This document shows positions 7,037 through 60,902 of a DNA stretch of 64,000 bases, piece after piece (within the stretch, counting starts at the first letter, position 1; each line of letters starts with the position of its first letter). The DNA is from Escherichia phage St11Ph5: sequence record NC_070873.1; one strand, written 5' to 3'. A program made the position numbers and the translations under genes. The notes beneath the pieces were generated by a model. That model made no database searches. It was not told where the DNA came from and worked only from the letters and a program-made list of their open reading frames with translations.

Positions 7037-8254
7037 ATGCAACTGTTAACCGCTCGTGAATACCTGAAAGTAGATATCGCTAATAACTATGGCTTAGATA
7101 AGAAGACATGGGATGAGCGTATTGCCTGGTTTGATGAGAACGAAGCTAACCTGCTTAATCTGGTAGATGAAGCTGAAGATTCTGCTCTGTTCTTTGCTGG
7201 TGTAAACGCATGGAAAGACATGAAAGCAGGTAAGCCTATTGGTTATGCCGTAGCTCTTGATGCTACATCATCAGGCTTGCAGTTACTGGCTTGCCTGACT
7301 GGTGACCGCTCTGCTGCTGAATTGTGTAACGTAGTTAACTACATGGGTGAGAATGGTAAGCCATTACGTCGTGATGCTTATACAGTTATCTATCACAAGA
7401 TGCTGGACATCCTTGGTGAAGCATCACGTATTAAACGTAGTGATACTAAGCAGGCAGTTATGACTGCATTCTACGGCTCAGAAGCCAAGCCTAAAGAAGT
7501 ATTCGGTGAAGGTATTCGTCTCAAGACTTTTGAGAATGTAATGGAAACTGTTGCTAGTGGTCCTTGGGCACTTAACAAGTTCTTACTGCAATGTGGTAAT
7601 CCAGATGCTAACCGTTATATATGGGTACTCCCTGACAACTTCCATGCTGTCATTAAAGTCATGATTCCTGAAGTACAGACTGTTAACTTCTTAGGTAAGC
7701 CATTCGACATCACTCGTATGGTTCAGGGTACTGAAGAGAAGACACGTATGCTCTCTGCTAACATCACTCACTCTATTGATGGGATGGTGGTACGTGAGAT
7801 GCTGCGTCGTTGTAACTTCGACCGTGACTTAGTGGAAGCTGTGCGAGAACTCTGCGATGAAGGTCCATCAGAATATGGGGAGATTGCAGGTAATCTGGAG
7901 AAGGTACAGGAATTGTGGAGCCACTATGAGAAATCCGGCTTCTTATCCTTATCCATTCTGGATTATCTTGACCCATGTACTATTGCTTATGTAGACCGTC
8001 AGGTAGTAGCAGATATGATTGACACCATGCCTAAGAAGCCATTCCCTGTAATGACTGTACATGACTGCTTCCGTTGCCATCCTAACTACGGTAATGACCT
8101 ACGTCGTCAATACAATCAGATTCTGTCTGACATTGCTAAGAGTGACTTACTGGGCTTCATCCTGTCTCAGGTACTGGGACAAGAGTTCTCTGCTGGTAAG
8201 CTGGATGACAGCCTCTGGCAGGACATTCTTGAAACAGACTATGCATTAAGTTAA
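7037..8254 (+). CDS. phage RNA polymerase II, catalytic subunit (T7-like single-subunit RNAP palm; 405 aa)
   Basis: Motif A DATSSGLQ, motif B RSDTKQAVMTAFYGS, motif C TVHDCF. Confidence 0.85.
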   Translation: MQLLTAREYLKVDIANNYGLDKKTWDERIAWFDENEANLLNLVDEAEDSALFFAGVNAWKDMKAGKPIGYAVALDATSSGLQLLACLTGDRSAAELCNVVNYMGENGKPLRRDAYTVIYHKMLDILGEASRIKRSDTKQAVMTAFYGSEAKPKEVFGEGIRLKTFENVMETVASGPWALNKFLLQCGNPDANRYIWVLPDNFHAVIKVMIPEVQTVNFLGKPFDITRMVQGTEEKTRMLSANITHSIDGMVVREMLRRCNFDRDLVEAVRELCDEGPSEYGEIAGNLEKVQELWSHYEKSGFLSLSILDYLDPCTIAYVDRQVVADMIDTMPKKPFPVMTVHDCFRCHPNYGNDLRRQYNQILSDIAKSDLLGFILSQVLGQEFSAGKLDDSLWQDILETDYALS

Positions 8255-8270
8255 TAAACTAGCCTCATTC

Positions 8271-8306
8271 CTTCGGGAGTGGGGCTTATTTTTTCTTTGG
8301 AGGTAG
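8271..8306 (+). terminator. intrinsic terminator after the RNAPII genes
   Basis: 11-bp stem with TTCG loop followed by TTATTTTTTCTTT. Confidence 0.7.
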
Positions 8307-8311
8307 CAACT

Positions 8312-8494
8312 ATGCTAATCACTTTTGAAGTAATCTTTCAGCTAATACTGATAGTTTTATCTATACTGGTTCTGTCTACAATAGTTCATTCCCACAAGTC
8401 TAAGTTTGCCTACTGCTACTATGGGGCATACTCACTAGGTTGCTTTGTAATGGCAGGATGGATAGCTTTTACTATCTACTGTGTAAACAACTAA
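8312..8494 (+). CDS. small membrane protein (60 aa)
   Basis: ATG at 8312 after GGAGG; the listed start at 8279 lies inside the terminator hairpin. Confidence 0.4.
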   Translation: MLITFEVIFQLILIVLSILVLSTIVHSHKSKFAYCYYGAYSLGCFVMAGWIAFTIYCVNN

Positions 8495-8511
8495 CCCTCT
8501 TAACGGAGGGT
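8485..8511 (+). terminator. intrinsic terminator (AACCCTC ... GAGGGTT then TATTTTTT)
   Basis: 7-bp stem plus T-run. Confidence 0.6.
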
Positions 8512-8567
8512 TTATTTTTTACATGTCATGTATACTAATCCTGCTATTTACTTATGAGGAAATTGAT

Positions 8568-9401
8568 ATGCCAACTTTGAAAGTAGGTTTTAACAAAACC
8601 ACTAATGTCGCAACTGTACTGGATGCAGGTGGTTCTATCCCGGGTGGTTCCGTAGAAATAGGTACTTTTGTACACCCGGATGCTACCTACCCTGATAGTT
8701 TAGTTATCTTTCATGGTGTTCGTGATCTGCTGTATAAATGCTCTGCTAAAAACCCTGCTGAAGAGGGTTTCTGGCCTAACAACATTGTGGATATGCAGTC
8801 TATCTCTATTGATATGAAAGCTACTCCACGACTGACTATTGCTACCAAACTGCCTCGTGTAGTATCTGCTATCGAAGGTGAAGACATCAACTGGCATGTT
8901 GATGTAGCAGGTGGTAAAGCACCATTTACTTATAAATGGCAATTCAAAGCTAATACTGCTGGTGCAGCATTCGCTGATATTAGCTCCAGCACTAACCCAT
9001 CCGCTGCTACTGCAACATTGACCCTTAATGATGTAACAGCTGCTTCCGCTGGTACTTATAAAGTGATTGCTACTGATGCTAATGGAACCACGGTAGAAGA
9101 TGAGTCGTTGCTGGCTGTAGGCTACTACGAAGCAAGCTCCCTGGTAGCTACTCCTGATTCACTGGCTCTGTCTGTTGCTGCTGATATTGCTGCTGGTAAG
9201 ACCGTAACAATTGTTGCTATGCCTGTTGGTTCTTCTGCTGGTACTTTGTCTATCAAGACCGCTCCAGATTCTGCTCGTGCTACGGCTACCATTGCTGGTA
9301 ATGTACTGACAGTTAAGCCAGTGGCTGCTGGTGATGCTACTTCTGTAGTAGTTACCAACGGTACTGTCGATGTAACTATCTCTGTTACTGTTGCAGAGTA
9401 A
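8568..9401 (+). CDS. Ig-like domain protein, likely capsid decoration protein (N4 gp17-like position; 277 aa)
   Basis: Ala/Thr/Val-rich repeats with Big_2/Ig-like character; sits immediately after the RNAPII genes; ATG at 8568 after GAGGA. Confidence 0.55.
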   Translation: MPTLKVGFNKTTNVATVLDAGGSIPGGSVEIGTFVHPDATYPDSLVIFHGVRDLLYKCSAKNPAEEGFWPNNIVDMQSISIDMKATPRLTIATKLPRVVSAIEGEDINWHVDVAGGKAPFTYKWQFKANTAGAAFADISSSTNPSAATATLTLNDVTAASAGTYKVIATDANGTTVEDESLLAVGYYEASSLVATPDSLALSVAADIAAGKTVTIVAMPVGSSAGTLSIKTAPDSARATATIAGNVLTVKPVAAGDATSVVVTNGTVDVTISVTVAE

Positions 9402-9423
9402 GAGTATTTCTTTTTGTGGTTAT

Positions 9424-9449
9424 AGCCCTCCTTAGCGAGGGCTTTCTTG
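9424..9449 (+). terminator. stem-loop, weak terminator
   Basis: AGCCCTC-CTTAGC-GAGGGCT followed by TTCTTG. Confidence 0.4.
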
Positions 9450-9468
9450 TATCTATAGGAGAGTAAAA

Positions 9469-9783
9469 ATGGCGCAAAAATTGCGTGTATGGCACATTCC
9501 CCAAGTGCCAATGAAGGCATTTCAAGTAGAGACTAATAGTCTTCAGGAAGCTGTTAAGATTAAGAATGCGTTAGCAGATTATGATCTATTCCAATATGAG
9601 AACAATGTCAAAGGCGATTATGCTAATGCTAACGGTATTGAGATGTGGGATGAGACTATCTCCGATCAAGAACTAGTGGAGATGGGTTTAGAAGACCGTT
9701 GGGTAGATTGGTATATTGAAACTGAAGATGGTTTCTTTGATGACCCAGAAGAGTATCTGAATTATCTAATCAAGCAAGTATGA
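9469..9783 (+). CDS. acidic hypothetical protein (104 aa)
   Basis: ORF after AGGAGAG; strongly acidic, Trp-containing. Confidence 0.55.
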   Translation: MAQKLRVWHIPQVPMKAFQVETNSLQEAVKIKNALADYDLFQYENNVKGDYANANGIEMWDETISDQELVEMGLEDRWVDWYIETEDGFFDDPEEYLNYLIKQV

Positions 9784-9832
9784 TTGCTTTATTTGGGGTT
9801 ATAAACCCTGAAATGAAACCCTCAAGTTTGAC

Positions 9833-9862
9833 CTCCCTATTAAAGGGAGGTCTTTTTTTGAC
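9833..9862 (+). terminator. intrinsic terminator (GACCTCCC ... GGGAGGTC then TTTTTTT)
   Basis: 8-bp stem plus 7 T. Confidence 0.7.
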
Positions 9863-9884
9863 TTAAACATTCTGGAGCCAGGAA

Positions 9885-10097
9885 ATGTATAAAGAGATTG
9901 CATTCTTCTCATTCTTGCTAGGTGGTTTAATAGGTGCAGGATTTGTAGCTATTTCTAATACCTACTTTGGTTCTACTCCAAATTCTGTAACACAAACCCT
10001 CAAGCATGAATGTGAATTAAATATCCCTCGTAATCAAAACTGTGTAATGCAGTTCGTACCGGAGAAAAATGAATATCCACAATCTACATTTGGTTGA
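9885..10097 (+). CDS. small membrane protein (70 aa)
   Basis: Hydrophobic N-terminal segment; GGAG upstream. Confidence 0.45.
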   Translation: MYKEIAFFSFLLGGLIGAGFVAISNTYFGSTPNSVTQTLKHECELNIPRNQNCVMQFVPEKNEYPQSTFG

Positions 10098-10329
10098 GAA
10101 ACTGTATGAAGAATACAATGACAACCGACAGCAATTAGCTAGTTTGAAGAAGTCACCACATATGGTGAAAGTATCATTCAATGGTACGGATTTAGGACCG
10201 CAAGCTCGTACAAGAATACTTCCTGAACTGCTGTCATTTTATCAAAAGAGGATTGCTGTCTTAGAAAAACGCTTTGAGCATTTATGTGTAGATTTATCAC
10301 CACTCCCAGATGAAGGGGAAGATGAGTGA
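10069..10329 (+). CDS. hypothetical protein (86 aa)
   Basis: ORF; start uncertain (overlaps upstream by 29 nt). Confidence 0.4.
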   Translation: MNIHNLHLVEKLYEEYNDNRQQLASLKKSPHMVKVSFNGTDLGPQARTRILPELLSFYQKRIAVLEKRFEHLCVDLSPLPDEGEDE

Positions 10330-10511
10330 AATTAACCCAGTCCCAAGCAATCTTCCTTCGTATGGTTCAAGGTGGCTCTGCCACCAGCAACCGTAATAAC
10401 AAAACCGCACAGTCCCTTAAGAAGCTGGGCTTAGTTCAGTTCAATGCTGGTCTTGGGTGGTCATTAACCCTTATCGGTGTACTTAAACTCAATGAAATGA
10501 AAGGTAACTAA
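10326..10511 (+). CDS. hypothetical protein (61 aa), GTG start
   Basis: Weak; GTG start overlapping previous stop. Confidence 0.3.
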   Translation: MKLTQSQAIFLRMVQGGSATSNRNNKTAQSLKKLGLVQFNAGLGWSLTLIGVLKLNEMKGN

Positions 10512-10841
10512 ATGAAAACTTTACTTAAAGGTATTGCAGTAGCTGCACTGATAGCTTTAGCTCCAAATGCACAAGCAGTTAAACCAGAACCAATTCTGGA
10601 AGGTGCTCAGGCTTATCTGGATGACACTCGTGATGCATTCGGACAAGGATTCTTCATGGGCAGTATGATCTCTTACATCGAGAACACTAATAACTGTGTT
10701 CCAGATGGTATGAAGTATTCAGACATTCTGCCTAAGATTGCCAAAGTAGTTATTTATGACTCTGCAATCCTCAAACTGAAGAATACATCTCAAATTGTCG
10801 TGTACTCCGTACACAAGGCATATCCCTGCACTAAATCTTAA
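10512..10841 (+). CDS. secreted/periplasmic protein with N-terminal signal peptide (109 aa)
   Basis: MKTLLKGIAVAALIALAPNAQA signal-peptide-like leader, AQA cleavage motif. Confidence 0.55.
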   Translation: MKTLLKGIAVAALIALAPNAQAVKPEPILEGAQAYLDDTRDAFGQGFFMGSMISYIENTNNCVPDGMKYSDILPKIAKVVIYDSAILKLKNTSQIVVYSVHKAYPCTKS

Positions 10842-10875
10842 TCAGTAATCCCATTAGCTTTAGGAGAGTAAGTAA

Positions 10876-11928
10876 ATGGCAAGCATTGACTCCTTGACTG
10901 TATGTAATTCACGTCAAGCTCGTAACTTTATTATCCGTGCTCTGAAAGCAGGTAACGTACCGTTCCTGACTTCATCACCAGGTATGGGTAAATCTGCAAT
11001 TATTCGTTCTATTGCAGAAGAATTTGGTATGAAGCTGATAGACCATCGTCTGTCTACTTCTGCTCCGGAAGACCTTTCTGGCTTACCATTCCGTAATGGC
11101 GACCGTGCAGAATTTATTCCTTTCGCTGACCTATTCCCTATTGAAGGGGATGAAGTACCGGAAGGTTATAATGGCTGGCTCCTGTTCCTTGATGAGTTCA
11201 ACTCAGCTAAGAAAGAAGTGGTAGCTGCTGCATACAAGCTGATTCTCGACCGTATGACTGGTCAGAAAAAGCTTCATCCTAATGTGATGATTGTCTGTGC
11301 TGGTAACAAAGCCACTGACCGTGCCATTGTTAACCCACTAGGTACTGCAATGCAGTCTCGTGTGGTTCACTTCGAAATGGAACTTAACTTCGACATCTTT
11401 GTTGAAGATGTAATGATTCCTCAGCAATGGGATGAACGTCTGGTTGCATTCTTACATGCTAATCCTGGTTATCTGCATGACTTCGACCCAGCACATAAGA
11501 ATAAAACATTCTGTTGCCCTCGTACCTGGGACTTTGTTAACAAAGACCTCAAGAACCTGCCAGAAGGTGCTCTGCCTGATGAAGATTCTCTTTACTACGC
11601 AGGACACGTTACTGCTGGTAAAGCTACAGAGTTTGTTCAGTTTACTCAGGTATACAATCGTATCATTACGATTGAGAAGGTGGTCAAAGACCCATTGGGC
11701 TGTGCACTACCCGATGATAACAACCTGTGTTGGGCTACCGTTAACCACCTGGCTAACAAAACTACTGAAGAAAACTTCGCTGATGTTCTTCAGTACATTG
11801 AACGCTTTAAAACGTTCACCCATAAGATTCTGTACTTCCGTACAGTAGGCAGAGCATTACCAGAACTACAGGCTACCCCTGAATGGCGTAAGGCTGCTGC
11901 TAATATCTCTCGTTACATTCACGGATAA
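10876..11928 (+). CDS. AAA+ ATPase, MoxR-like (350 aa)
   Basis: Walker A SPGMGKSA, Walker B LLFLDEFN, MoxR-like spacing. Confidence 0.8.
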   Translation: MASIDSLTVCNSRQARNFIIRALKAGNVPFLTSSPGMGKSAIIRSIAEEFGMKLIDHRLSTSAPEDLSGLPFRNGDRAEFIPFADLFPIEGDEVPEGYNGWLLFLDEFNSAKKEVVAAAYKLILDRMTGQKKLHPNVMIVCAGNKATDRAIVNPLGTAMQSRVVHFEMELNFDIFVEDVMIPQQWDERLVAFLHANPGYLHDFDPAHKNKTFCCPRTWDFVNKDLKNLPEGALPDEDSLYYAGHVTAGKATEFVQFTQVYNRIITIEKVVKDPLGCALPDDNNLCWATVNHLANKTTEENFADVLQYIERFKTFTHKILYFRTVGRALPELQATPEWRKAAANISRYIHG

Positions 11929-11935
11929 TCACAAC

Positions 11936-13111
11936 ATGAACCAATTTCCTCAGCACACACTTAGTGATGAACAACTCATGCGTGAGTATGACCGTATTCA
12001 GGCGCAGGCGTTTCTCGGACGCAGTGCTGCGTTCTTTGGTTCATTGCTGTGTAGTCTTAAGTTCTCATGGAAACGTGAGGATTGCCCCACTGCATGTACT
12101 GATGGGATAGAACTCCATTTCAACCCAGACTTCTTTATCTGGATGTGTCCAGATGCAAGAGAAACAGTATTAATGCATGAACTATGGCATGTAGCATATC
12201 TACATGACATCCGTCGTGGAAGCCGTGACCCGGAAATCTGGAACCAGGCTTGTGACCACTTCATTAACCTTCAGTTAGAAGAAGATGGTTACAAGTTCAC
12301 TGGCATTGACAAAGGCATTTGCAAAGACCCTCAATATAAAGGATGGGTCGAAGAAGACATCTACGATGACCTGATGAAGAACCCTCAGAAAAGGCAGAAG
12401 CCCTCGGGGGGTGCTGGAGCAGGTCTTGCTGGCGACATGAAATCCCCCACTTCGGGGCAGTCCCAGGGTGCTGTTGTCAACAACGTAGTACGTGCAATGC
12501 AAAGCCAGAAAATGGCTGGTGGACAGATGCCCGGTAAGGGTGCTGGTCGTATGGAAGAGGTTATTACCCAATTCCTTAAACCAGTGGTTCCCTGGCAGGA
12601 AGTTCTGATGAACTTCTTTACCGACATTGATGACACACACTATACGTGGGCCAGACCTAATCGTCGTTACACTGATATCTATCTACCTTCCCTGGAAGAT
12701 GATGAAGGACGTTTACGTCACTTAGCCTACTTTGAGGATGTGTCTGGTTCTATTAGTAGTGCTGACTCTCTGCGTTTTAACTCAGAGGTTGCCTACGTTA
12801 AGAGCCAATTCAATCCTAAGAAGATGTCCTTAATTACCTTCGACGATATTATCCAGGAAGAGATAGACATCACTGAAGAAGATACTTTTGAAGAGATTAA
12901 GATTACAGGTCGTGGTGGTACAAGCCTTGTGCCTGTACGAGATTGGATTATTAAGAATAAACCAACCGCTGCAATCATATTCTCCGATATGTATGTTCGC
13001 CCAATGGAAGAATTGCCATTTGATATCCCTATCATCTGGTGTGTTCTGAATAATCCTAATGCTACCGTACCTTTTGGGGAGGTAGTTCATATCCCTAAAG
13101 GAATGAAATAA
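11936..13111 (+). CDS. vWA-domain protein with N-terminal zincin-like HExxH domain (391 aa)
   Basis: HELWH motif, DVSGSISS MIDAS-like motif; directly downstream of the MoxR ATPase. Confidence 0.7.
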   Translation: MNQFPQHTLSDEQLMREYDRIQAQAFLGRSAAFFGSLLCSLKFSWKREDCPTACTDGIELHFNPDFFIWMCPDARETVLMHELWHVAYLHDIRRGSRDPEIWNQACDHFINLQLEEDGYKFTGIDKGICKDPQYKGWVEEDIYDDLMKNPQKRQKPSGGAGAGLAGDMKSPTSGQSQGAVVNNVVRAMQSQKMAGGQMPGKGAGRMEEVITQFLKPVVPWQEVLMNFFTDIDDTHYTWARPNRRYTDIYLPSLEDDEGRLRHLAYFEDVSGSISSADSLRFNSEVAYVKSQFNPKKMSLITFDDIIQEEIDITEEDTFEEIKITGRGGTSLVPVRDWIIKNKPTAAIIFSDMYVRPMEELPFDIPIIWCVLNNPNATVPFGEVVHIPKGMK

Positions 13112-13836: not shown

Positions 13837-13909
13837 GTAGCTGCCTAAATAGCCCAGCATTGTTGGGCTATTTGTGAAGAAACTAACTCAACCCCACATA
13901 GGAACCATC

Positions 13910-14161
13910 ATGGAATCTTTAGCAGCAATCCTTGTTATGTTGTTTGTATTAGCTGTATACCTTATCCCTACTATCATTGCTTTTGCACGAGGCCATGCCT
14001 CTAAGTGGGGCATTGGTGTGCTAAACATCGTATTAGGTTGGTCACTGGTATTCTGGGTAGTAGCACTGATTTGGGCACTGTCCAATAAAGGAACTACAAT
14101 CGTTAACGTTGGTAGTGGTAACCAGTACAACGTGTCCCAAACGAGCAGTAAAGCAGAGTAA
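13910..14161 (+). CDS. superinfection-immunity (Imm)-like membrane protein (83 aa)
   Basis: IIAFARGH ... NIVLGWSLVFWVVALIWA matches the Imm family pattern; ATG at 13910 after AGGA. Confidence 0.5.
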   Translation: MESLAAILVMLFVLAVYLIPTIIAFARGHASKWGIGVLNIVLGWSLVFWVVALIWALSNKGTTIVNVGSGNQYNVSQTSSKAE

Positions 14162-49954: not shown

Positions 49955-50398
49955 TTAACGAGTTAGCTTATTAGCTGCAATGTAAGCATCAGCTGAAGAC
50001 TGGTCACGGTTCTCTGCTGTAGCACGACTACGAGCACGGTCTTCTAGTGCAGTGTTATAAGACTTAATCTGGTTATTCAGGTTAGTGTTAGTAACACTCT
50101 TAGCAAAGTTCAACTGGTCTTTGGCTAACTTATTAGCCTGGAAACCACTGTAGATATTAGCTAATGAACCAAGTGCACCAAGCCCTAACTGAAAGGTAGG
50201 TACGTTCATGCCCAACTGATTAGCTGAACCAGACATGAGCGAAGTAGGGGTAGATGCACCCAAATTAGTACCCATACCAATAGCTGCACCTGGGTTATAG
50301 TTCATAGCCGAGGTATTAAAGTTCTGATTGTTATTAGACATCCAAGACATAGCAGCTGGCTGTGGGGTTTGGTTGCCTGTTAAGAATGACAAATCCAT
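49955..50398 (-). CDS. hypothetical virion protein (147 aa)
   Basis: Late-module ORF, Asn/Ser/Gly-rich. Confidence 0.5.
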   Translation of the reverse strand: MDLSFLTGNQTPQPAAMSWMSNNNQNFNTSAMNYNPGAAIGMGTNLGASTPTSLMSGSANQLGMNVPTFQLGLGALGSLANIYSGFQANKLAKDQLNFAKSVTNTNLNNQIKSYNTALEDRARSRATAENRDQSSADAYIAANKLTR

Positions 50399-59779: not shown

Positions 59780-60286
59780 TTATTCCTGTTCAAAAAGTTT
59801 ACGGTCAGCCTGAATCTGTTTACCCAACTCAATTAGTTGGCTGTCACGGAGTCTAACAGTTGCCCGGAGTTCTTCAACCAAACGTCTGCCTTCTTCAAGA
59901 CTGTTGTCGAGTCTGGCTGCATGGCTTGCAAGACTTCTGCACTCAAAGGTTCCGGATTCGGCTTGACGTTTATATACCGATGCTCGTCTTTCAGACTGTT
60001 GCATCCGGCTGTCGTAATCACTGCTAACGCGAGCAAGCTCGCTTGCGTAATTACTCTCAGCCGTCTGCAACCGGGAAGTGAGTAACCCGACTTCATAACT
60101 ATGGTTTCTTTGGAGAGCATTGTATTTGTCCTGTAATTTTTGTGTTGCCTTTTGGTCTTCGACCTTTTGGGCATCCCACTTCTTTTGAACAGTAGACTGT
60201 CCATTGGAGTTACCCCAAAAGTAAATGGTGGCCCCAAGGACCACCACCAGAAGATAAGGCCAACCTTTAGAGATTAGCATCTTCAT
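59780..60286 (-). CDS. i-spanin (Rz-like): N-terminal TM helix plus periplasmic coiled coil
   Basis: [26 protein letters not shown] then charged coiled-coil region; GGAGG 6 nt upstream of the ATG at 60286; directly downstream of the endolysin. Confidence 0.55.
59833..60096 (-). CDS. o-spanin (Rz1-like) lipoprotein embedded in the +1 frame of the i-spanin gene
   Basis: Signal peptide with lipobox-like ITTAGC and a Pro-rich mature region, entirely inside the Rz-like gene. Confidence 0.45.
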   Translation of the reverse strand: MKSGYSLPGCRRLRVITQASLLALAVITTAGCNSLKDEHRYINVKPNPEPLSAEVLQAMQPDSTTVLKKADVWLKNSGQLLDSVTAN

Positions 60287-60902
60287 TACATGCCTCCAGT
60301 GGCACATTGCCTATTCGGTTAGCTACCCAACCATACGTAAAGTCTGGCATGTTTAATGAGGTGTAGTGGTTCAGTTGTTTGGCATCAAGTAACTTAATCA
60401 TTACCTGACATGCTGCAACTTTGCCTCGTTTTTTCTGTAATGCTTTATATGCATTAACAGTACTTGTACCGACTTTACCATCAACCTGTATTTTAGGGTA
60501 GTCTTTGCCGTCACGGGACATTTCATTAAGAGATAACTGCAACCACTTAGCAGGACGGGTTACACCAGTGTTAACACCAGCATCAACCAGCTTGTGTGTT
60601 ACAGCAGGAGATATATCAGCAAAGGCTACGAAGTTAGGCTTAAGTACGTAGTCATCAATGTATATCTCAGCAGCCATCTCTTTAGACAAACCTTTCATAG
60701 AACCATCCCAACCATACTCAGTAGCCAGAACTTCTTTATGAGATTTAGCTACCGATTGGGTAATTCCATGGTTAGTTTCCCCACCTGGGTCACGAGGATT
60801 GTTTACGTAACCCCCTTCCATATAGAACACTGCCCCCAGGATAGCAGCGACAACTCCTCCCACTGCACCACCTTTCGCAGCAAGTTTTTGTTTAGCTTTC
60901 AT
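60267..60902 (-). CDS. endolysin, GH108-type N-acetylmuramidase with N-terminal SAR-like segment and PG-binding-like C-terminus (211 aa)
   Basis: EGGYVNNPRDPGGETNHGIT (GH108 EGGY motif); Gly/Ala-rich weakly hydrophobic N-terminus. Confidence 0.75.
   Translation of the reverse strand: MKAKQKLAAKGGAVGGVVAAILGAVFYMEGGYVNNPRDPGGETNHGITQSVAKSHKEVLATEYGWDGSMKGLSKEMAAEIYIDDYVLKPNFVAFADISPAVTHKLVDAGVNTGVTRPAKWLQLSLNEMSRDGKDYPKIQVDGKVGTSTVNAYKALQKKRGKVAACQVMIKLLDAKQLNHYTSLNMPDFTYGWVANRIGNVPLEACNEDANL

Follow-up and report, generated by a model that had tools for sequence, protein, structure and literature searches.

The window analysed here is a 64,000-nucleotide stretch of Escherichia phage St11Ph5 (sequence record NC_070873.1), and the region of interest is a cluster of five small open reading frames (ORFs) at positions 9469–10841, all on the plus strand. 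They are referred to as orf104, orf70, orf86, orf61, and orf109, in that order. A first-pass annotation, made from the sequence alone, had noted a cluster of small proteins at these positions between a decoration-type gene on the left and an AAA+ ATPase gene on the right, and both the ORFs and the flanks are as it described. The account below is concerned mainly with orf109, whose predicted product resembles Rap1a, an immunity protein of the bacterial type VI secretion system (T6SS), and with orf104, whose predicted product resembles gp17 of phage P22.

The region 8500–11900 has 94.9% DNA identity, with identical coordinates, to Escherichia phage vB_EcoP_ShWW44 (Gamaleyavirus), and 60 further records match as well, from podoviruses of the G7C-like, N4-like group (Schitoviridae, Enquatrovirinae, Gamaleyavirus). 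The five-gene stretch is a variable accessory island, located directly after the RNA polymerase 2 (RNAP2) and decoration genes of Gamaleyavirus, which are G7C-like, N4-like virulent coliphages. The five ORFs are real, conserved genes, because each matches a PHROG family (expectation value, E, between 1e-33 and 1e-62), each is preceded by a Shine-Dalgarno-like sequence, and, in the three genes compared, the ratio of nonsynonymous to synonymous substitution rates (dN/dS) between related phages shows purifying selection. This ratio was computed pairwise for orf70 (0–0.04), orf61 (0.23–0.59), and orf109 (0.04–0.22), using pairs with dS above zero. No match to any of the five proteins was found in NCBIfam or PADLOC.

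The gene orf109 (10512–10841, plus strand) is the homologue of G7C gp17.3. The first-pass annotation assigned a Sec-type signal peptide with an AQA cleavage motif to its product, and this stands: residues 1–22 (nucleotides 10512–10577) consist of an n-region with K2 and K6, an h-region GIAVAALIALA, and a c-region P-N-A-Q-A|V, with cleavage predicted after Ala22. The call rests on the −3/−1 rule. A lipobox was looked for in the N-terminus and none was found. In the AlphaFold2 (AF2) model, residues 1–23 have a low predicted local distance difference test score (pLDDT) and are followed by a confident helical domain of five helices, with pLDDT above 90 across the mature part. Every divergent homologue keeps a signal-like N-terminus, with small residues ahead of the predicted cleavage point.

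The mature protein is very probably a divergent, exported member of the Rap1a family (also called Tai4a; PF18602), as judged from profile comparisons and predicted structure. Rap1a from Serratia marcescens (PDB 3ZFI), which is cognate to the T6SS effector Ssp1, has a 26-residue signal peptide and five helices and forms a stable dimer; its Cys78–Cys122 disulfide links the α2–α3 loop to the C-terminus and is required for folding (PMC3852654). The predicted structure of orf109 has the same compact five-helix fold, at a similar size (about 86 mature residues, compared to 93 in 3zfi_A). Two cysteines are invariant in the phage proteins, namely Cys62, in the predicted α2–α3 loop, and Cys106, three residues from the C-terminus. 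Their spacing of 44 residues, which is that of Rap1a, is found in 117 of 119 phage homologues. They probably form a disulfide, and by analogy with Rap1a the protein may dimerise.

Profile searches with the homologues lead to the same family. Rap1a was the top Pfam match for 11 of 12 diverse relatives of orf109 and then for 9 of 10, with the alignment always extending to the last profile position, and the allele from Shigella phage Moonfish (43% identical to orf109) scores 29.6 bits, which passes the Pfam gathering threshold of 27.7. It was a search with the Moonfish allele that provided the bridge to bacterial proteins: in a tblastn search of 7.3 Gb of plasmid sequence, the first match was to a protein annotated as ‘Rap1a/Tai family immunity protein’, and two more with this annotation were among the eight matches (E 1–4). 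The plasmid proteins from Sinorhizobium meliloti (59 bits) and Yersinia ruckeri (38.8 bits) themselves pass the Pfam threshold. When the phage family alignment (A1) was compared to these two proteins using hhalign, the probability was 85% (E 6.3e-6, 102 columns), with both cysteines aligned, together with the C-terminal P-C motif and a C-x-P-x-G motif that are common to the phage and bacterial proteins. Independently, a 93% identical protein is annotated as ‘RAP1A ... COMPLEX’ in a metagenome, and the corresponding gene is named Tai4 or Rap1a in a few phage entries of GenBank. The likeness to Rap1a is in export, size, cysteine spacing, and motifs, while sequence identity is very low and the phage clade is isolated from the bacterial members.

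Every Gamaleyavirus locus examined has an orf109-type gene, which lies immediately upstream of the AAA ATPase gene. A tblastn search of a phage collection found homologues in 55 Gamaleyavirus-type records (from Escherichia, Shigella, and Klebsiella phages); N4 is not among the matches listed. An HMMER scan of 1.84 billion representative proteins gave only eight matches, and in an alignment-based search of 5.8 billion proteins the relatives inspected were on N4-like contigs of about 70 kb or on fragments too short to classify. The module orf70–orf61–orf109, equivalent to gp17.1–17.3 of G7C, is found in nearly all full-length loci examined, while orf104 and orf86 come and go.

Within this module orf109 is a sharply bounded, hypervariable allelic cassette. 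DNA identity to G7C, U1G, and Moonfish is about 84–100% in orf61 and in the ATPase gene, intermediate in the signal-peptide region of orf109, and 43–69% in the part of orf109 that encodes the mature protein. At the protein level, identity to G7C is 98% for orf70, 92% for orf61, and 96% for the ATPase, compared to 37% for orf109. Clustering gave at least seven allele types with less than 65% identity to each other. Within one allele type, orf109 is under purifying selection (dN/dS 0.04–0.22).

A separate arrangement was seen in a metagenomic contig of 2.2 kb (L005 1120–2204), where a Rap1a-like protein (P0136, 29% identical to orf109) is encoded directly after an AAA ATPase gene rather than before it. 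The link between Rap1a-like and AAA ATPase genes therefore recurs, in a different arrangement.

The first gene of the island, orf104 (9469–9783, plus strand), encodes an acidic protein that is predicted to be cytoplasmic and almost certainly belongs to the P22 gp17 family (PF17420). It matches the Pfam family GP17 with 151.9 bits against a gathering threshold of 25 (E 5.8e-45) and phrog_1510 with an E-value of 6e-50, and shares 60.8% identity with P22 gene 17 across 93% of its length (E 1e-34). All 15 family-invariant residues are kept. The two proteins also have the same size and acidity. Homologues were found in 323 phage records, comprising P22-like phages, Stx-converting phages, Salmonella and Klebsiella phages of approximately 150–160 kb, and N4-like phages, and also in many enterobacterial genomes. 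Within Gamaleyavirus orf104 is present in some loci and absent from others, including G7C, Moonfish, 24-32N, and several metagenomic relatives. It forms a self-contained cassette, flanked by terminator-like hairpins at 9424–9443 and 9830–9852, and behaves like a moron-type insertion.

Two papers that cite Semerjian et al. 1989 (PMC6486243; PMC9409062) report that P22 gp17 is necessary to counteract exclusion by the Fels-2 prophage. The database name of the family, with which many of the 323 phage records are labelled, is ‘superinfection exclusion protein’. This label is misleading, since the reported phenotype, escape from Fels-2 exclusion, is the opposite of what the name implies; because of this phenotype we regard gp17 as a counter-defence protein. 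By homology, orf104 would be a strongly acidic cytoplasmic protein of the counter-defence (anti-defence) kind, enabling the phage to grow in hosts whose prophages encode an exclusion system. The genetic context differs between the two: orf104 is in a virulent N4-like podovirus, between two hairpins, while the P22 gene is in a lambdoid early-left operon. In P22 the gene belongs to the PL operon, where its neighbours include ral and abc, which act against restriction and against RecBCD.

The first-pass annotation had noted small hydrophobic proteins, in the plural, in this cluster. Of the three products encoded between orf104 and orf109, only that of orf70 is a membrane protein; orf86 is hydrophilic, and orf61 has no real transmembrane segment. 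None of the three has a Pfam match at E-values up to 10. The gene orf70 (9885–10097, plus strand; phrog_7508, E 2e-33), homologous to G7C gp17.1, encodes a small bitopic membrane protein with an N-terminal transmembrane segment: there is one strong hydrophobic segment, at residues 5–23, with a maximum of 2.28 on the Kyte-Doolittle scale in a 19-residue window. Its C-terminal motif ECELNIPRNQNCVMQFVPEK contains two invariant cysteines and is unchanged even in a homologue that is 48% identical (alignment A4), which makes a periplasmic Cys-loop plausible.

The hydrophilic orf86 (10069–10329, plus strand; phrog_19185, E 7e-59) occurs in roughly one in two of the related loci, and had no match in Pfam, NCBIfam, PADLOC, or PDB. 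It overlaps orf70 by 29 nucleotides (10069–10097). Where orf86 is present, as here and in ShWW44, this overlap makes the C-terminus of orf70 eight residues longer (ending …EKNEYPQSTFG rather than …EKK), and the extension shows where the orf86 insertion joins on its left side.

The next gene, orf61 (10326–10511, plus strand; phrog_7665, E 1.5e-34), is homologous to G7C gp17.2 and starts with GTG. In nearly all full-length loci examined it is directly upstream of the Rap1a-like gene. Its product is small and basic (isoelectric point, pI, 11.3). A membrane location was considered and rejected, as no segment reaches transmembrane hydrophobicity (Kyte-Doolittle maximum 1.34). This copy has Leu-Ile where most homologues have Pro-Thr, and the invariant pattern of the family, which resembles that of a winged helix, is LT..Q...L.M...G...NKTA..L.K..L...GW.LT..G. 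The best PDB profile matches are weak (E 0.085–2) and are to the ribosomal proteins eS19 and eS10/S10_plectin, over residues 26–57. eS19 and eS10 are winged-helix proteins, and the matches are suggestive of a winged-helix-like motif in orf61, and no more than suggestive.

The order of genes around the island is RNAP2 subunit (7037–8254), a small hydrophobic ORF, the Ig-domain decoration gene, the five genes, the AAA ATPase, a DUF2201 metallopeptidase/VWA gene, and dCTP deaminase. The decoration gene (8568–9401, plus strand) encodes an N4 gp17-like or Hoc-like capsid protein with Pfam Ig_3 and I-set domains (phrog_2973, E 2e-100), in agreement with the annotation of G7C gp17. The ATPase gene (10876–11928, plus strand) is N4 gp24-like, with a Pfam AAA domain (phrog_1297, E 1.6e-133), and together with the DUF2201 gene that follows it agrees with the G7C annotation of gp24 and gp25. 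The ATPase gene is intact here, while in phage U1G and in two metagenomic relatives it is present as two ORFs, split by an inserted HNH homing-endonuclease gene (L014 2872–4806; L007 6362–8296). Downstream of the ATPase, the ORF at 11936–13111 (plus strand) encodes a homologue of N4 gp25 with DUF2201_N (putative metallopeptidase, E 2e-56) and DUF2201 VWA-like domains. This homologue is labelled ‘HNH endonuclease’ in PQ900156 and in PHROG 1314, which looks like a propagated misannotation. On the other side of the decoration gene, the small, very hydrophobic ORF at 8279–8494 (plus strand; a homologue of G7C gp16.1, phrog_12530) is bracketed by terminator-like hairpins at 8261–8286 and 8493–8512. 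Much further away, the ORF at 49955–50398 (minus strand) encodes a homologue of the N4 ejection protein gp52 (16.5 kDa; PDB 9yf4 at E 7.5e-44). It has a sub-threshold match to Pfam Ntox22, ‘bacterial toxin 22’ (22.9 bits, gathering threshold 25), which is probably compositional noise given that the protein is the 16.5 kDa ejection protein.

A consensus scan found six terminator-like sites on 8200–11000, where 1.8 were expected. The hairpin at 9424–9443 (plus strand), with a T-rich tail, is 3′ of the decoration gene and forms the upstream edge of the orf104 cassette; G7C has an annotated stem_loop at the equivalent interval 3′ of its own decoration gene. The hairpin at 9830–9852 (plus strand), 3′ of orf104, is strong, with a 9 bp stem that includes six GC pairs and a T7 tail, and is the counterpart of the G7C hairpin that precedes gp17.1. 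From about 9800 onward, the DNA aligns at 84–94% with the G7C sequence upstream of gp17.1. Over 8200–11000, Rfam gave only sub-threshold matches, on a terminator hairpin. The middle genes of N4 are transcribed by RNAPII, after gp1, gp2, gp15, and gp16 have been transcribed by the virion RNA polymerase (PMC13434306). Since the cluster directly follows the gp16 homologue and a terminator-like hairpin, middle-class expression is reasonable, and judging by gene order the island is probably transcribed with the middle genes.

We now consider what orf109 may do. Rap1a dimers are pre-formed and neutralise Ssp1 by steric block of its active site, Ssp1 being a Tae4-type, NlpC/P60-like endopeptidase that cuts the γ-D-Glu-mDAP (meso-diaminopimelate) bond of peptidoglycan (PMC3852654). 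By analogy, orf109 would be exported by Sec, cleaved after Ala22, and folded into its five-helix domain in the periplasm of the infected cell, where during the latent period it would bind an incoming peptidoglycan endopeptidase as Rap1a does, and so preserve the sacculus up to the point at which the lysis programme of the phage itself sets in. We consider the odds to be about even that orf109 inhibits a peptidoglycan endopeptidase that acts in the periplasm. The hypervariable cassette suggests that the target is most likely a variable, exogenous enzyme, and speaks against both a conserved enzyme of the host and the endolysin of the phage itself. T6SS amidase effectors from neighbouring Enterobacteriaceae are the favoured candidates because neutralising T6SS effectors is the only documented function of the Rap1a family, and because orphan genes of this type are known in bacteria and on a conjugative plasmid; orf109 would then be a virus-borne orphan immunity gene. 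A T6SS effector in particular as the target is a tentative suggestion, clearly less likely than endopeptidase inhibition in general. To the fuller reading, that a genus of virulent coliphages carries a hypervariable orphan T6SS immunity gene that shields the infected ‘virocell’ during the latent period, we give a probability of roughly 0.3. The first-pass annotation put the secreted protein forward as a candidate factor for superinfection exclusion or receptor masking. The idea of a protective periplasmic factor fits the Rap1a/Tai4a homology, which is more specific and points to an inhibitor of peptidoglycan DL-endopeptidases that act in the periplasm; nothing was found in support of receptor masking.

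Orphan genes provide the closest precedent for this reading. Rap1a itself is also known as an orphan with no adjacent effector gene, in Cronobacter (PMC3852654), and we found orphan Rap1a/Tai genes on the conjugative Yersinia ruckeri plasmid pWKY (L015 3887–4231) and adjoining IS21 genes on Sinorhizobium meliloti pSymB (L016 3884–4198), with no effector gene adjoining either among the features listed. Orphan T6SS immunity genes on mobile elements resemble orf109 in being members of an immunity family on a mobile genome without the effector, and in their rapid allelic diversification. The difference is that those elements stay with the cell that they protect, while a phage kills its carrier, which limits any benefit of orf109 to the latent period. 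Compared to Rap1a, orf109 is encoded by a virulent phage, outside any T6SS cluster and without an adjacent Tae4 or Ssp1 gene. Our literature search returned no relevant paper on phage-borne Rap1a/Tai4 or on T6SS immunity in virulent phages, and no functional study.

A number of observations weigh against the proposal that orf109 is a T6SS immunity protein. Some concern its distance from the known family. Rap1a is the only Pfam match of orf109 itself, at 17.8 bits (E 0.005), which is below the gathering threshold. HMMER searches of PDB sequences, with single sequences and with profiles, gave no meaningful match to orf109, to its relatives P0136 and P0137, or to alignment A1 (nor to orf104, alignment A2, or orf86), and a Foldseek search with the orf109 model gave poor E-values, of 2–6. 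In the structural alignments, identity is 8–9%. The searches of 1.84 and 5.8 billion proteins revealed no close bacterial relative of the phage clade; the phage lineage is therefore old and may have changed targets. Other observations concern the effector. No cognate effector gene adjoins orf109, whose neighbours encode the 61-residue basic protein and the AAA ATPase. Rap1a-type immunity is reported to be highly specific to the cognate Ssp1-like effector (PMC3852654), and given this tight specificity and the divergence of orf109, binding to any known effector cannot be assumed. Finally, when the 12 effector-contact residues of Rap1a were mapped onto orf109, using a crude fixed register, their conservation (0.27) was just a little below the average of 0.33, a weak signal to which we attach no weight.

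The principal rival retains the inhibition of a peptidoglycan-cutting enzyme and changes the enzyme. In T4, the early periplasmic protein Spackle inhibits the gp5 tail lysozyme of a superinfecting T4 and does not appreciably inhibit the endolysin (PMC7677548). Acting alongside an Imm-like protein, orf109 could similarly bring about superinfection exclusion by inhibiting an enzyme that the superinfecting phage needs to get through the cell wall. The competitor might bring this enzyme along in its virion, for instance as an NlpC/P60-type tail domain, or might rely in trans on an endopeptidase of the host. NlpC/P60 domains occur in the tail-tip proteins of lambdoid and T1-like siphophages. As in T4, the pairing with Imm is available, since the ORF at 13874–14161 (plus strand), 3 kb downstream of orf109, encodes a protein with two transmembrane segments of the T4 Imm ‘superinfection immunity’ family (PF14373, 61 bits, gathering threshold 27.9). 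Hypervariable alleles would fit an arms race with competitor phages, and entry of N4 needs a peptidoglycan hydrolytic activity that is ‘presumably provided in trans’ (PMC13434306), such that blocking a host or foreign enzyme could block entry. It could be, as a new exclusion mechanism, that orf109 blocks the trans-acting endopeptidase that N4-type phages need for entry because their virions have no peptidoglycan hydrolase of their own. A conserved host enzyme as the target would leave the hypervariability unexplained. Self-exclusion through the enzyme of a sibling phage has no evident target, since the N4 ejection proteins are without a peptidoglycan hydrolase (PMC13434306) and Pfam finds none in the virion proteins of this phage; a Pfam scan of ten proteins from the late region, belonging to virion, lysis, and tailspike, found no NlpC/P60, CHAP, or Tae4 domain. 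In addition, all characterised members of the Rap1a family are T6SS immunity proteins, and no homology of orf109 to Spackle was found in sequence or fold. The likeness, comprising export to the periplasm by a virulent phage, hydrolase inhibition (known for Spackle, proposed here), and an Imm-family gene, would be one of functional analogy only: Spackle targets a lysozyme in the incoming virion, N4-type virions are without a known peptidoglycan hydrolase, and Spackle is an early gene product, while the expression class of orf109 is judged from gene order. We regard exclusion of this kind as rather unlikely, although it is the strongest of the alternatives.

Two further alternatives retain the Rap1a fold and alter its purpose. 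The fold may have been re-used for an unrelated role, as a periplasmic chaperone or adaptor, a modulator of the host envelope, or a partner of orf70. The isolation of the phage clade would be consistent with this, as would the company of orf109, which travels with orf61 and with orf70 and its invariant two-cysteine motif in the full-length Gamaleyavirus loci examined; but the phage proteins retain the family-specific cysteine pair with its spacing, as well as the C-terminal PC motif, and hypervariability in cassette form is what immunity and specificity proteins typically show. Such re-use appears improbable. More improbable still, by a wide margin, is that orf109 restrains the phage's own endolysin in the periplasm, as a means of lysis timing or lysis inhibition. 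N4-type phages show lysis inhibition and export a signal-anchor-release (SAR) endolysin before lysis (PMC12642591), which a periplasmic inhibitor could in principle delay. The endolysin here (60267–60902) is however a GH108 N-acetylmuramidase with a PG_binding_3 domain, a class unrelated to the cysteine endopeptidases blocked by Rap1a; orf109 is far from the lysis cassette; and the tblastn search found its homologues in Gamaleyavirus-type records only, with N4 not among the matches listed. For orf104, the alternative to be weighed is that it is a DNA mimic of the Ocr or ArdA kind, which would block restriction or other DNA-binding defence proteins. This had been proposed from its composition, and the acidic, Trp-containing 104-residue protein is as the first-pass annotation described (pI 4.12, 22 Asp/Glu and 8 Lys/Arg, four Trp). 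Ocr and ArdA are likewise small and very acidic (the pI of orf104 being 4.1), the strong acidity is conserved in the gp17 family (among 105 members, the median pI is 4.13 and the median net charge −15), P22 gene 17 has ral and abc as its neighbours, and the phenotype known from the P22 accounts is escape from prophage-encoded exclusion. The structure tells against it: the AF2 model, made with 28 homologues, is a confident (pLDDT 91.9), compact, small α/β domain, and it shows no fold of the Ocr or ArdA kind, in which a DNA-like array of carboxylates is presented. Only two of the 15 invariant residues of the family are acidic (D39 and D50), the others being mostly aromatic, hydrophobic, or polar (V7, P11, Q12, P14, F18, L35, Y38, F41, Q42, N45, K48, G56, and W78), and the most acidic segment of orf104 (residues 61–75) is deleted in several homologues. 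With an unrelated fold, and membership of a separate and well-defined family, orf104 is in our view quite unlikely to be a DNA mimic, and the proposal is not supported.

The families of orf104 and orf109 are already known, and both are labelled in some public records, misleadingly so for orf104. What is added here is the soundness of the Rap1a assignment, the recognition that virulent phages carry this gene as a hypervariable, cassette-like element throughout a genus and with no effector, and a corrected meaning of the gp17 name, which leaves the gp17 homologue as a widespread anti-defence candidate. Should exclusion turn out to be the role of orf109, the protein would represent a second class of mechanism, after T4 Spackle, and could help to identify the missing peptidoglycan-cutting activity of N4-like phages. 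If instead orf109 neutralises T6SS amidase effectors, this would mean that virulent phages participate in interbacterial competition, which would be a new class of phage auxiliary function. The infected cell would be temporarily immune to its neighbour's weapon, and the allelic cassettes would serve as a record of the effectors that are important in the gut or in wastewater. There would be implications for phage therapy in mixed communities, and a set of natural inhibitors of NlpC/P60-type endopeptidases would become available.

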